Shown here piece after piece: positions 1,140-4,208 of a stretch of 4,208 nt of DNA. The DNA comes from a virus (lineage: Duplodnaviria; Heunggongvirae; Uroviricota; Caudoviricetes), in IMG/VR virus record IMGVR_UViG_2660238600_000003, positions 1 to 4,208 of that record; one strand, written 5' to 3'. A program made the translations under genes and the position numbers. Below the pieces are notes generated by a model that saw only the letters and a list, made by a program, of their open reading frames with translations, made no database searches and had not been told where the DNA came from. Position 1 is the first letter of the stretch. Every line of letters starts with the position of its first letter.

Positions 1140-1156
1140 CTTGCTCTAATAAATTG
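1140..1156 (+). promoter_or_regulatory. C1 repressor operator (Op51-like), probably overlapping the promoter of the c4-icd-ant operon.
   Basis: CTTGCTCTAATAAATTG matches the asymmetric 17-bp P1 C1 operator consensus ATTGCTCTAATAAATTT at 15/17 positions. It lies 4 nt after the terminase stop and upstream of the c4/icd/ant genes. No clean -35/-10 pair could be assigned. Confidence 0.6.
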
Positions 1157-1287
1157 TGTTTTTTAACTGCCGATGTTACATTGAGCCTGACCTCTTGCGC
1201 CTTGAGGCATTTTCGGTTTATGCTTATCAGGCATCTCAGTAAAACGGGTGCCGGGATTGAGACCCCGGATAATGCAAAAGGCGACAC

Positions 1288-1310
1288 AGACGCCAAAAGC
1301 GTCTTTTTTT
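1288..1310 (+). terminator. Rho-independent terminator, plus-strand orientation.
   Basis: AGACGC (1288-1293), loop CAAAA, GCGTCT (1299-1304), then a run of seven T (1304-1310). On the opposite strand no T-tract follows the stem. Confidence 0.55.
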
Positions 1311-1355
1311 GTGTCATGCCATCGCACAGCCATACGTAGCGTTTAGCTCAGAGAT

Positions 1356-1442
1356 CAATGGTAGTGCTGGCTGGGCTGCCGAAAGGCAGGCCGGTTCCCT
1401 TTTGCGCCGGTAGTCTCAACCCAGTCAGTGCTACCGCCATTG
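1356..1442 (+). ncRNA. c4: c4-like antisense regulatory RNA (candidate; ends approximate).
   Basis: Non-coding stretch directly upstream of icd. A 14-bp interrupted closing stem pairs 1356-1369 with 1426-1442, and an internal GNRA-type hairpin lies at 1371-1390 (CTGCC-GAAA-GGCAG core at 1376-1389). Two segments are complementary to the icd translation initiation region: 1398-1405 CCTTTTGC pairs with 1477-1484 GCAAAAGG (Shine-Dalgarno), and 1356-1364 CAATGGTAG pairs with 1488-1496 CTGCCATTG (reaching the GTG start; one G-U). This matches the known P1 c4 a2/b2 versus a'/b' arrangement. Confidence 0.45.
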
Positions 1443-1495
1443 AGATTGAGACCTCACGCGGTAGCTCCTTAAATTAGCAAAAGGAGGCTGCCATT

Positions 1496-1717
1496 GTGGC
1501 TACTATCCCTACCCCTGCTCATCCTGAATTTATCTGGCGCTTTTACTCCTGCCAAAAACGTCACTATCACTTCGTTATTGCACCGACAGAAGATGAGGCA
1601 CGTTCTCAGCTTCCGGATGCTCCCTGTATTTTCTCTGCCCGCTTTTCTACCGATTCGCGCAATTCTCTCAGTTACTGGTGCCTCCCTGTTAACGCTTCTG
1701 CTCAGGAGGGACTATGA
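1496..1717 (+). CDS. icd: Icd-like small protein (73 aa; interference with cell division), first ORF of the immunity-I operon.
   Basis: GTG start at 1496 preceded by AAGGAGG (1481-1487, 8-nt spacer). The stop at 1715-1717 overlaps the ant1 ATG (ATGA). Size and position (between c4 and ant, overlapping ant1) match P1 icd. No protein-level confirmation was possible. Confidence 0.55.
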   Translation: MATIPTPAHPEFIWRFYSCQKRHYHFVIAPTEDEARSQLPDAPCIFSARFSTDSRNSLSYWCLPVNASAQEGL

Positions 1718-2829
1718 GAACGTCATTAGTCACCCGTGAAGAGATGATCGAGGCAATTGAACAGCACACTGCCTGTATCAGTACCAGGGATATACCGGGC
1801 GTTATTGCCAACTACTTCATGATCACCAAACAACTTTACCGGAGAAAGGACAAACACGCGGTTCACCGCATTCTGCTAACCGATATCCGTGAATACCTGC
1901 TCGAACAGGGTCATCTGAATTACGCAACCGTCGCAGCCGAAGCACGCAAGGAGGCACACAGAATGAAAGCTACTAACGTTAAATCAGAAAAAGTTCATGC
2001 ACCTTCAGTTCAGGAATCAGAGCTGGTGGTTGTTCAAAATCAGTCGGATGAAATTCCCGTTCTGGAGTGGCAGGGAGTGCGTGTCGTAACAACCGAAACT
2101 CTTGCTAAGGGGTATGGTACAGAAGCGATTCGCATTCGCCAGAATCATCATGAGAACAAAGTACGCTTTGTTGAAGCGAAGCACTTTTTCAAGGTTATTG
2201 GCGATGAGCTGAAAAATTTGCGGGTAGCTTTAAACTACTCACAAAATCCAGTCTCCCCCAAAGCGCGCTCTCTCATCCTCTGGACAGAACGAGGAGCTGC
2301 CCGTCACGCTAAAATGCTCGAAACCGATCAGGCATGGGCATTCTTTGAAAAACTGGAAGACAGCTACTTCCGACAAAAAGAACAGCAACCGGTCGCAATC
2401 CCCCAGACGCTTCCAGAAGCTCTGCGCCTGGCTGCCGAGTTAGCTGAACAAAAGCAACTTCTGGAACAGAAAGCCCACCAGCTAAATCAGCAGCTGGTGG
2501 CCGCCGCTTCTAAAGTCGATTTTGCCGACCGGGTATCAGTAGCTAAAGGGATCCTGATTGGGAATTTTGCAAAGGTCGTTGGACTTAAACAAAATGCGCT
2601 GTTTGCCTGGTTACGGGAGAACGGCATTCTGATAGCGTCCGGAGGCCGTAAAAATGTACCGTTCCAGCAGTACATCAACGCGGGGTATTTCACGGTGAAA
2701 GAAGTGGTGCTGGATGATGAAGATGGCTACCAGATACGGTTGACGCCTCAATTAACGGGTAAAGGCCAGCAGTGGTTGACGCGTAAACTGCTCGATGCTG
2801 GCTTGTTAAAACCGGTGGCGGCTGAATAA
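1714..2829 (+). CDS. ant1: Antirepressor Ant1 (371 aa), with a C-terminal region typical of phage antirepressors.
   Basis: ATG at 1714 preceded by AGGAGGG (1704-1710). The 371-aa product (about 42 kDa) contains an in-frame internal start giving a 288-aa product (about 32 kDa), matching the P1 Ant1/Ant2 pair. The C-terminal half (DFADRVSVAKGILIGNFAKVVG...FTVKEVVLDDEDGYQIRLTPQLTGKGQQWL) resembles phage antirepressor KilA-C-type domains, judged by eye. Confidence 0.75.
   Translation: MRTSLVTREEMIEAIEQHTACISTRDIPGVIANYFMITKQLYRRKDKHAVHRILLTDIREYLLEQGHLNYATVAAEARKEAHRMKATNVKSEKVHAPSVQESELVVVQNQSDEIPVLEWQGVRVVTTETLAKGYGTEAIRIRQNHHENKVRFVEAKHFFKVIGDELKNLRVALNYSQNPVSPKARSLILWTERGAARHAKMLETDQAWAFFEKLEDSYFRQKEQQPVAIPQTLPEALRLAAELAEQKQLLEQKAHQLNQQLVAAASKVDFADRVSVAKGILIGNFAKVVGLKQNALFAWLRENGILIASGGRKNVPFQQYINAGYFTVKEVVLDDEDGYQIRLTPQLTGKGQQWLTRKLLDAGLLKPVAAE
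1963..2829 (+). CDS. ant2: Antirepressor Ant2 (288 aa), in-frame internal start within ant1.
   Basis: ATG at 1963 with a strong AAGGAGG Shine-Dalgarno at 1948-1954 (8-nt spacer) inside the ant1 frame. P1 is known to make two Ant proteins from nested in-frame starts. Confidence 0.45.
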   Translation: MKATNVKSEKVHAPSVQESELVVVQNQSDEIPVLEWQGVRVVTTETLAKGYGTEAIRIRQNHHENKVRFVEAKHFFKVIGDELKNLRVALNYSQNPVSPKARSLILWTERGAARHAKMLETDQAWAFFEKLEDSYFRQKEQQPVAIPQTLPEALRLAAELAEQKQLLEQKAHQLNQQLVAAASKVDFADRVSVAKGILIGNFAKVVGLKQNALFAWLRENGILIASGGRKNVPFQQYINAGYFTVKEVVLDDEDGYQIRLTPQLTGKGQQWLTRKLLDAGLLKPVAAE

Positions 2830-3781: not shown

Positions 3782-3824
3782 TTATAGAGGGATCAAACGA
3801 AAATAATAGATTTATTAGTGCATT
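3782..3824 (-). promoter_or_regulatory. Candidate c1-proximal promoter with an overlapping C1 operator-like site (autoregulation).
   Basis: On the minus strand there is a perfect TATAAT (plus coordinates 3782-3787) about 70 nt upstream of the c1 ATG, with a weak -35. The minus-strand site at 3808-3824 (AATGCACTAATAAATCT) matches the C1 operator consensus at 14/17 positions. Confidence 0.3.
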
Positions 3825-4033: not shown

Positions 4034-4208
4034 AATTATGCCTCACTGTATTGACAACACAGAGCCTGAAGCTCTGACCTACTGTTTCACCCATGATCCA
4101 TGCTGGGGTAATCTAACAACATTGCGCTGTGTGTAAGATGAGCAATGCATAGGGAAGGTGCGAACAAGTTCCTGATATGAGATCATCATATTCATCCGGA
4201 GCGCATCC

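Follow-up and report, generated by a model that had tools for sequence, protein, structure and literature searches.

A c4 antisense RNA of known type upstream of icd and ant in a P1-like plasmid prophage, with a corrected map of its target sites

The region at 1354-1441 of the stretch of DNA analysed here (the window, 4,208 nucleotides of IMG/VR record IMGVR_UViG_2660238600_000003) is an ordinary copy of the c4 antisense RNA already known from P1-type phages. The window very probably contains a standard c4-type immunity module of the P1/P7 immI kind, in a D6/isrK-type form. Antisense control of icd and ant by c4 has been textbook P1 biology since 1990, and the family has an Rfam entry. What the present analysis corrects is the site map for this allele, in which the second contact of the RNA is that of a' (1413-1419) with a2 (1446-1452) and not one with the icd start codon. 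It also reveals that the a'/b' specificity alleles and the four copies of their targets change together across many phages and plasmids.

The Rfam covariance model RF01695 (C4) matches 1354-1441 on the plus strand over its full length (model positions 1-87 of 87), with 75 bits against a threshold of 45 and E = 5e-14. This bears out the earlier sequence-only reading, which had called the region a c4-type antisense RNA and whose quoted sequences all lie where it placed them. The cassette is a D6-type c4-icd-ant arrangement in a P1-like E. coli plasmid prophage, with pacB on one side and c1 on the other, and the operon context of a C4 RNA is present:

1140-1156, plus strand: operator-like site for the C1 repressor, CTTGCTCTAATAAATTG, heading the c4-icd-ant operon
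1354-1441, plus strand: C4 antisense RNA gene (Rfam RF01695 match)
1496-1717, plus strand: icd-like gene, 73 aa, GTG start (NCBIfam NF033153, 49.8 bits)
1714-2829, plus strand: antirepressor gene with ORF6N and KilAC/ANT domains (Pfam PF03374, 1e-30; PF10543, 3e-19)

The operator-like site has two mismatches to the P1 C1 operator consensus, where shuffled sequence gives a mean of 0.01 matches, and its position corresponds to that of Op(c4) as annotated in the P7 record. The icd-like product is 81% identical to P1 Icd over 64 aligned residues, and the ATG of the antirepressor gene overlaps the icd stop codon (ATGA, 1714-1717). The C1 repressor gene adjoins the module (equivalog, 611 bits).

The fold of the RNA is that of its family, a long closing stem around two hairpins with covariation support, and can be laid out as follows:

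1359-1375, plus strand: 5' strand of the closing stem, 17 bp and like a tRNA acceptor, paired with 1420-1436; many of the pairs are compensated among 34 alleles
1376-1389, plus strand: hairpin 1 (CUGCC GAAA GGCAG), from the Rfam model and the minimum free energy (MFE) fold; all five pairs covary
1390-1411, plus strand: hairpin 2, with a 12-nt loop that contains b' (Rfam model, MFE fold and allele comparison)
1420-1436, plus strand: closing stem, 3' strand; then C1437 C1438 A1439, a tRNA-like GCCA end
1360-1438, plus strand: putative mature c4 RNA, ~79 nt, 5' GGU and 3' ...GCC, by Rfam alignment transfer from P7

The MFE fold of 1360-1438 coincides with the Rfam structure (-46.6 kcal/mol, z = -5.7), and compensatory double changes are found in 16 of the 27 pairs across the 34 c4 alleles. 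The intramolecular pairing of 1356-1369 with 1426-1442 that had been proposed is correct in substance, being the closing stem, but its register in the Rfam and mature structure is 1359-1375 with 1420-1436; the fold of the precursor has another outer register, 1355-1362 with 1436-1443. The single internal hairpin that was said to separate the antisense segments is in fact two hairpins inside the closing stem, with b' in the loop of the second.

The putative ends of the mature RNA come from P7, whose c4 is annotated as 77 nt (L005, 1344-1420), by way of the Rfam alignment. On this analogy, RNase P would cut between U1359 and G1360 and leave a product ending near C1438. The sequence prerequisites for such processing are present (U/GGU at 1359/1360, and G1436-C-C-A) and align with the annotated P7 RNA. 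Moreover, the GGU at 1360 fits the GGW motif at which, according to PMC5320573 (which summarises Citron & Schuster 1990 and Hartmann et al. 1995), RNase P processes c4 to 77 +/- 1 nt.

Two separate antisense segments in antiparallel order had been proposed, and this is how the RNA is arranged, with the following sites and targets:

1398-1405, plus strand: b', CCUUUUGC, in the hairpin-2 loop; exactly complementary to b2 and b1
1413-1419, plus strand: a', GUCUCAA, in an unpaired linker; exact complement of a2 and a1
1446-1452, plus strand: a2, UUGAGAC, the upstream target on the icd-ant mRNA
1460-1492, plus strand: predicted Shine-Dalgarno-sequestering hairpin, GGUAG 1460-1464 with CUGCC 1488-1492, in MFE folds
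1477-1484, plus strand: b2, GCAAAAGG, covering the first four bases of the Shine-Dalgarno sequence AAGGAGG (1481-1487)

The sequence-only reading recognised the canonical b'/b2 contact, in which 1398-1405 pairs with 1477-1484. Here CCTTTTGC and GCAAAAGG form eight Watson-Crick pairs as exact reverse complements, and in 33 of 5000 dinucleotide shuffles the 12-nt hairpin loop has a match of 8 nt somewhere in the 62 nt downstream. The pairing covaries in relatives, and is real and non-random. The true second contact is that of a' with a2. The segment a' lies in the 8-nt unpaired linker 3' of hairpin 2, and its match to a2 alone is reached in 38 of 5000 shuffles, while the 7-bp and 8-bp exact matches to a2 and b2 jointly are reached in none of 5000. 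The offset of a2 after c4 is nearly fixed, at ~9 nt, in most related loci. Within the window, TTGAGAC occurs on the plus strand only at 1257 and 1446, and GCAAAAGG only at 1274 and 1477.

Both antisense segments are accessible, with predicted opening costs of 0.97 kcal/mol for b' and 0.01 kcal/mol for a'. Energies between c4 and its targets were obtained by summing opening and duplex energies rather than by RNAcofold-style prediction of the complex, because such prediction cannot accommodate the loop-loop and linker contacts, which cross the closing stem. The resulting net energies are -5.7 kcal/mol for a2 and -2.2 kcal/mol for b2. The value for b2 is this small because the site is partly buried in the predicted local hairpin (opening 6.4 kcal/mol), the loop of which (1471-1480) contains the 5' half of b2. 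Comparative support for the 1460-1492 hairpin is modest, with 70.3% paired against 67.4% in shuffles, and a local structure over the icd Shine-Dalgarno sequence is best regarded as a weakly supported prediction rather than a finding.

Across related loci, all six elements (a', b', a1, b1, a2 and b2) covary between alleles. For example, the complement of a' is found within 30 nt downstream in 127 of 139 loci, which carry 14 a' alleles, against a single match in 182 tests of a' against the sites of other alleles. Similarly, 124 of the 139 loci, with 34 different hairpin-2 loops, have a run of at least 7 nt of b' in their own b2, compared with 32 of 1122 cross tests. When the a'/a2 and b'/b2 cells are taken together (alignment A2), 86.4% are paired against 62.1% in shuffles, with 0 of 500 shuffles as high; double-change cells number 148 against 54, and controls in which the partner was slid reach 30-51%. 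Phages P1, P7 and SJ46 follow the same site scheme, each with its own alleles. A c4 that lacks a matching a2 was found in 12 of the 139 loci, mostly chromosomal copies from Sodalis and Acerihabitans. The patterns used to collect the loci required ATCAATGG, so variation in the 5' leader was sampled only through P1, P7 and SJ46.

In place of a'/a2, the sequence-only reading had put the second contact across the GTG start of icd, in a switch whereby release or sequestration of the antisense element by the closing stem would expose or hide it. The two segments concerned are:

1356-1364, plus strand: proposed start-codon antisense element, CAATGGTAG, made up of the 5' leader 1356-1359 and five nt at the start of the closing stem; unsupported
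1488-1496, plus strand: proposed second target, CTGCCATTG / CUGCCAUUG, whose last base is the G of the GTG start

The 9-bp complementarity does exist, with CAATGGTAG pairing to CTGCCATTG at nine positions, one of them a G-U (U1362-G1490). In each of the 113 related loci with an intact CTGCC motif, its inner 6 bp (UGGURG with CUGCCA) can still pair, and a weak analogue, UUAUGG with CCGUAA, can be made out by eye in P1 and P7. However, runs of at least nine pairs with at most one G-U between the 88-nt c4 and the 36-nt initiation region appear in 243 of 5000 shuffles (4.9%). Among 38 aligned relatives, no covariation of 1356-1364 with 1488-1496 was detected, 74.1% being paired against 74.0% in column shuffles (279 of 500 as high), and sliding the partner by +3 raises pairing to 77.3%. 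The full match occurs only with a GTG icd start, in 21 of 61 D6-type loci; 40 of the 61 start icd with ATG and have lost the three outermost pairs (CAA:UUG) without compensation, and CTGCC is absent from 26 of the 139 loci. The proposed switch fares no better, since 1356-1359, four of the nine bases, would lie 5' of the RNase P site deduced from P7 c4. The other five are buried in the 17-bp stem, and opening the segment in the precursor is predicted to cost ~12-12.6 kcal/mol, for a net +8.4 kcal/mol, or a net +13.5 kcal/mol for the part that would survive processing. In addition, GGUAG 1460-1464 is the predicted local partner of the target CUGCC and is the same pentamer as at the 5' end of c4; this shared pentamer accounts for the resemblance of 1356-1364 to a complement of the start region. 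The site was rejected in four ways, by shuffles, by accessibility and duplex energy, by per-locus tabulation and by covariation. Its complementarity is no more than chance plus shared conserved motifs, and an element toggled across the GTG, or a third contact made by the precursor, is extremely improbable.

A different kind of explanation turns on coding rather than pairing: 1358-1477 may be, or may also be, a gene for a 39-aa 'Ash family protein' corresponding to orf45 of Gifsy-1, and its translation through the c4 precursor and a2-b2 would open the icd initiation region and so activate icd and ant. The frame runs without a stop from the AUG in CAAUGG as far as the UAG at 1475-1477, scores 29.1 bits against Pfam PF10554 (Phage_ASH, threshold 26) and is called an ash family protein by PGAP. 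An SPA-tagged product of orf45 has been seen in Gifsy-1, where mutation of its first AUG lowered activation of anrP (PMC4825925). Nevertheless, 11 of 44 c4 alleles have a stop in this frame after 8-18 codons, and lengths of the hairpin-2 loop differ by non-multiples of three. Substitutions track base pairing, as the compensated stem pairs attest, and variation is concentrated in a' and b' and mirrored in the non-coding targets. Upstream of the AUG of the open reading frame, no Shine-Dalgarno sequence better than GAGA is found, and the P7 record annotates the element as an RNA. A coding role for this stretch is, on balance, very unlikely, and automated annotation here places an 'ash family protein' over a c4 RNA gene.

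Beyond the contacts of a' and b' with a2 and b2, the targets are also present upstream of c4, in a leader with its own terminator:

1231-1309, plus strand: isrK-like leader RNA carrying a1 and b1 (Rfam RF01394, 56 bits, threshold 50)
1257-1263, plus strand: a1, UUGAGAC, upstream duplicate of the a' target, exact complement
1274-1281, plus strand: b1, GCAAAAGG, upstream duplicate of the b' target, exact complement
1288-1311, plus strand: intrinsic terminator of the leader, a 6-bp stem followed by a T run (terminator scan)

These duplicates had been missed in the sequence-only reading. Jointly, a1 and b1 are matched in 1 of 5000 shuffles; a1 is present upstream in 30 of 30 loci with the a' allele GUCUCAA, and b1 in 39 of 39 loci sharing the b' loop. 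The Rfam c4-a1b1 model reaches only 20.3 bits at 1218-1271, below its threshold of 46.7, and the terminator agrees with the terminator hairpin of the isrK model. In the predicted leader fold, a1 lies in the loop of hairpin 2 and b1 is unpaired, and both are more accessible than a2 and b2, with net energies of -7.6 kcal/mol (a1) and -7.1 kcal/mol (b1) compared with -5.7 and -2.2 kcal/mol. As the leader has its own terminator, synthesis of c4 requires read-through or another promoter.

A small RNA released from the leader could conceivably titrate c4 in trans through a1 and b1, giving a system of decoy, antisense and target. P1 c4 and Gifsy-1 IsrK/orf45 would then share one mechanism, and orf45/STnc1160 and the 'Ash family' calls would be misread c4 RNA genes. 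This extension is speculative and, on present evidence, somewhat doubtful. An Hfq-binding isrK acting in trans on a read-through transcript is known only for Gifsy-1 (PMC4825925).

For the c4 cassette itself, the most probable course of events is as follows. The operon, with the C1-operator-like site (1140-1156) at its head, would be transcribed rightward. The leader would fold like IsrK, display a1 in a loop and b1 unpaired, and end at the intrinsic terminator, while read-through transcripts would carry the c4 precursor. By homology with P1 and P7, RNase P would trim this precursor to the ~79-nt RNA, which would then pair with the mRNA of the same operon at a2 (7 bp) and b2 (8 bp). The b2 duplex would mask the 5' part of the icd Shine-Dalgarno sequence, 12 nt upstream of the GTG. 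Because this part is covered, icd would remain untranslated, and ant would fall with it because its start overlaps the icd stop. In P1, c4 action also brings about premature transcription termination. The icd translation start as the c4 target, with ant affected through coupling, had already been suggested and can be accepted, with repression in vivo and icd-ant coupling expected from the work on P1 and P7. By the same analogy, c4 probably sets immunity specificity in vivo, through its a' and b' sequences. The genetics of P1 and P7 behind c4 repression and immunity specificity are reportedly the work of Citron and Schuster in 1990. PMC5320573 assigns occlusion of the ribosome binding site to the b' loop and specificity to a'.

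Comparison with known systems places the module close to several of them. The comparison with P1 and P7 c4 that had been suggested shows the same fold and site layout with different a' and b' alleles. The window shares with P1 and P7 (RF01695; Citron & Schuster 1990) the Rfam family and three-helix fold, and a common one-strand layout of operator, a1, b1, c4 (b' then a'), a2, b2 over the Shine-Dalgarno sequence, icd and ant. Further likenesses are the GGU at the putative RNase P site, the RCC(A) 3' end, the similarity of icd over its aligned residues and an icd-ant overlap that would permit coupling. However, the c4 sequences of P1 and P7 are too diverged for blastn alignment with that of the window, and the model that the window leader matches is isrK, not c4-a1b1. 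The antirepressor here is an ORF6N and KilAC protein, whereas P1 and P7 have Ant1/2, and the module lies between pacB and c1, whereas theirs adjoins sim and kilA.

The c4 of phage D6 differs from that of the window by one base (C in D6 for T1424), and D6 shares a', b', a1, b1, a2 and b2 with the window. Its icd starts with ATG (CTGCCAATATGG), where the 9-bp match to the start codon shrinks to 6 bp, and its upstream flank holds ref-like and other open reading frames, while that of the window holds pacB. A c4 homologue in D6-like prophages has already been noted (PMC6799933).

In the Salmonella prophage Gifsy-1 (isrK-orf45/STnc1160-anrP), in Stx phages and in APSE, the order is likewise an isrK-family RNA with a terminator, immediately followed by a C4-family RNA and then an antirepressor-type gene. 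For Gifsy-1, sequence complementarity is reported between IsrK and STnc1160, which is processed to ~80 nt, together with activation of the antirepressor AnrP by IsrK in trans (PMC4825925; Hershko-Shalev et al. 2016). Positions suggest that STnc1160 is a C4 RNA; the equivalent stretch has been read there as coding orf45, coupled directly to anrP without an icd.

At the level of alleles, the window has GUCUCAA as a', where P1 has CUGUCAA and P7 CUGCUAA, and CCUUUUGC as b', compared with the cores CACUAAC (P1) and CACAAUC (P7). A single scaffold carries all four pairings of two a' alleles (GUCUCAA and GUUCCAA) with two b' alleles (CCUUUUGC and CCUUUGAC), a pattern that points to the exchange of short segments as the source of new immunity types.

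The c4 system of the window is already known, and the whole stretch is found with 100% identity in E. coli plasmid pF404-1 and other P1-like plasmid prophages. Escherichia phage JL22 (Punavirus) is 98.8% identical to positions 1140-1720, while phage D6 is ~87% identical in the c4-icd part. The gene order is as follows.

Left part of the window: 3' part of pacB, with a Tn3-family element inserted just left of it
Right of pacB: c4-icd module
After the c4-icd module: antirepressor gene, with Pfam ANT/KilAC and ORF6N domains
Minus strand: C1 repressor gene (NCBIfam equivalog, 611 bits)
Minus strand, beside the C1 gene: small gene, coi in the JL22 annotation
About 4150-4208: ISKpn26 end, the left end of an IS5-family element

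The Rfam C4 antisense RNA model gives a full-length match at 1354-1441 (+) with 75 bits (threshold 45), and also matches P1, P7, SJ46, D6, JL22, an Stx2 phage and APSE-7. Existing records annotate C4 RNA in the Stx2 phage and APSE-7 and c4 in P7, there as a 77-nt RNA. Aligned to P7 c4 through Rfam, mature c4 in the window would span G1360 to about C1438, with GGU at its 5' end and C-C-A after it, like a tRNA acceptor end. This RNA alone folds into the Rfam structure (-46.6 kcal/mol, z = -5.7), comprising a 17-bp closing stem, a GAAA hairpin, a second hairpin with a 12-nt loop and an 8-nt unpaired linker. The intramolecular pairing proposed in the sequence-only reading is the closing stem, whose register in the mature RNA and the Rfam alignment is 1359-1375 with 1420-1436; in the precursor fold its outermost part adopts a shifted register, 1355-1362 with 1436-1443. 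Among 34 distinct c4 alleles gathered from viral and genome collections, compensatory double changes occur in 16 of 27 pairs, so the element is a structured RNA.

In D6-type (the c4 class of the window) and Sodalis-type loci, a 5' leader UCAAUGG is complementary to a 3' trailer CCAUUGA. When the precursor is folded, this pairing lengthens the closing stem across the tRNA-like CCA end in the shifted register, and it might influence RNase P processing. It is absent from other c4 types, where the trailer is CCAGCGA.

As summarised in PMC5320573, c4 of P1 and P7 has two unpaired segments, a' and b', whose targets a2 and b2 precede icd; duplicates of these targets, a1 and b1, precede c4. Blockage of the ribosome binding site is due to the b' loop, and specificity to a'. 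The sites can also be recognised in the sequences of P1 and P7 themselves. The window carries the following elements, all on the plus strand.

1257-1263: a1, UUGAGAC, in the isrK-like leader
1274-1281: b1, GCAAAAGG, in the isrK-like leader
1398-1405: b', CCUUUUGC, in the hairpin 2 loop of c4
1413-1419: a', GUCUCAA, in the unpaired linker of c4
1446-1452: a2, UUGAGAC, in the icd-ant mRNA
1477-1484: b2, GCAAAAGG, in the icd-ant mRNA
1481-1487: Shine-Dalgarno sequence AAGGAGG, its first four bases covered by b2
1496: icd start, GTG

The four sequence strings of the sequence-only reading all lie where it placed them, and its first pairing holds: CCTTTTGC at 1398-1405 is the exact reverse complement of 1477-1484. 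Both antisense segments are accessible, with opening costs of 0.01 (a') and 0.97 kcal/mol (b'), and neither target word recurs anywhere else on the window's plus strand outside its two listed places. The match at b2 alone was reached in 33 of 5000 shuffles and that at a2 alone in 38 of 5000, a2 and b2 together in none of 5000, and a1 and b1 together in one of 5000. A sigma-70-like promoter match (TTGAGA, 18-nt spacer, TAAATT; 9/12) at 1446-1475 (+) overlaps a2 and stops just short of b2; an icd-ant mRNA started there, should the promoter be active, would not contain a2.

The pairings were compared across 139 loci with a c4 of this kind, plus P1, P7 and SJ46, a sample containing 14 a' heptamers and 34 hairpin-2 loop regions. 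In 127 of the 139 loci, a' has its complement no more than 30 nt downstream; the complement appeared in another allele's downstream region in one of 182 cross tests. Similarly, b' matches its own b2 region over 7 nt or more in 124/139 loci, compared with 32/1122 cross tests. Offsets of a2 and b2 after c4 are nearly fixed (about 9 and about 40 nt), as are those of a1 and b1 within each c4 type (in the D6 type, for example, c4 begins about 97 nt after a1 and 80 nt after b1). On a 38-sequence alignment, 86.4% of a'/a2 and b'/b2 cells are paired versus 62.1% in column shuffles (0/500 as high), with 148 double-change cells versus 54 in shuffles and 30-51% pairing in slid controls. Furthermore, the D6-type scaffold carries either GUCUCAA or GUUCCAA as a' and either CCUUUUGC or CCUUUGAC as b', and all four combinations occur, each with a1, b1, a2 and b2 all matching (compared loci L030, L096 and L121, the window and many further loci). 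This suggests that exchange of short segments is a source of new immunity specificities.

The sequence-only reading also placed a second antisense contact over the icd start, between 1356-1364 (CAATGGTAG) and 1488-1496 (CTGCCATTG). The complementarity exists (nine positions, one G-U), but as an antisense site it failed every test applied. Overall, the observation is confirmed, and its interpretation supported, in part. An equally long or longer run between the c4 and initiation regions, again with no more than one G-U, arises in 4.9% of shuffles. In 61 D6-type loci with an identical c4 5' end, the target is CTGCCATTG in 21, CTGCCATTA in 20 and CTGCCAATA in 20; complete 9-bp pairing is confined to the loci where icd starts with GTG, not ATG, and no change in c4 compensates for the lost pairs in the others. 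The CTGCC motif is absent altogether in 26/139 loci. Pairing stands at 74.1% against 74.0% in shuffles, and a +3 slide does as well (77.3%). Positions 1356-1359 fall 5' of where RNase P is predicted to cut on the basis of P7, and the segment sits in the closing stem, costing 12.6 kcal/mol to open (net +8.4 in the precursor); the five bases surviving processing give net +13.5 kcal/mol. The resemblance can instead be attributed to a predicted local hairpin in which CUGCC (1488-1492) pairs with GGUAG (1460-1464), a pentamer also forming the 5' end of mature c4. This hairpin would bury the Shine-Dalgarno sequence, and its comparative support is modest.

The module most likely works as in P1, as a C1-controlled operon. 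A C1-operator-like site at 1140-1156 is homologous to the annotated Op(c4) of P7. The first product would be the leader with a1, b1 and a terminator (1288-1311), and read-through would yield the c4 precursor and then the icd-ant message. By analogy with P1 and P7, processed c4 would bind a2 and b2 and block the icd ribosome binding site, preventing translation of both icd and the coupled antirepressor. The icd product shares 81% identity with P1 Icd over aligned residues, and the antirepressor gene begins with an ATG that overlaps the stop codon of icd. The analysis itself demonstrates family membership, fold, accessibility, complementarity and covariation, while processing, repression and coupling are carried over from P1/P7. 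Between c1 and the coi-like gene, at 3808-3824 (-), lies another C1-operator-like site, AATGCACTAATAAATCT, with 3 mismatches to the consensus.

Directly upstream of c4, the leader matches Rfam isrK at 1231-1309 with 56 bits (threshold 50); the c4-a1b1 model matches weakly. RNAs of the isrK and C4 families are adjacent in this plasmid, D6, JL22, Stx phages and APSE (for example, window 1231-1441, and 1493-1680 and 1492-1681 in compared loci L006 and L003), with a1 forming the isrK hairpin-2 loop and b1 the stretch before its terminator. In Gifsy-1, IsrK activates the antirepressor AnrP in trans by binding a stretch named orf45, which yields a ~80-nt processed RNA, STnc1160, that according to the authors has complementary sequences in common with IsrK (PMC4825925). 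Judged by position, the start of orf45 is the AUG within CAAUGG, the c4 leader, and orf45/STnc1160 appears to be the C4 homologue. In a 2025 review, IsrK and c4 are still presented as systems without relation to each other (PMC12197685). The isrK-like leader may act as a c4 decoy.

An ORF at 1358-1477 (+; 39 aa), in the frame that corresponds by position to Gifsy-1 orf45, lies inside the c4 RNA gene and a2 spacer. PGAP labels it 'ash family protein' (WP_071527722.1), and Pfam PF10554 Phage_ASH matches it at profile positions 49-87 with 29.1 bits (threshold 26). However, the frame stops early, after 8-18 codons, in 11 of 44 c4 alleles, which together with the covarying RNA pairs makes a protein gene unlikely here. 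At least the 49-87 part of Phage_ASH may have been built on translations of c4 RNA genes.

Several variants were found elsewhere. Sodalis and Acerihabitans chromosomes (L232, L233, L246, L256, L257, L262) each hold several copies of c4. Sites resembling a1/b1 lie upstream of these copies, and a hairpin and T run follow in place of a2/b2; they look like orphan c4 genes whose targets may lie elsewhere. Phage D6 has a second, weaker C4-like match at 2616-2695 (40.2 bits, below threshold), about 550 nt upstream of its main c4, which fits the second c4/icd-like region remarked in D6-like prophages (PMC6799933). In one Stx-type locus (L185, about 5935-6085), the b2 region has grown into a tandem array between a2 and the Shine-Dalgarno sequence, with the b2-containing unit CACCAATCA repeated ~7 times.

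At the window's left edge (1-57), a Tn3-family transposase gene ends with its stop at 22-24, and a 38-bp terminal inverted repeat occupies 20-57. The insertion lies in pacB (terminase large subunit), of which the 3' 1079 nt of 1485 nt remain to the right, so the plasmid prophage is probably incapable of DNA packaging. In insertion-free relatives, the match begins at position 58. At the other edge, the ISKpn26 transposase gene of pF404-1 starts 13 nt past the window end.
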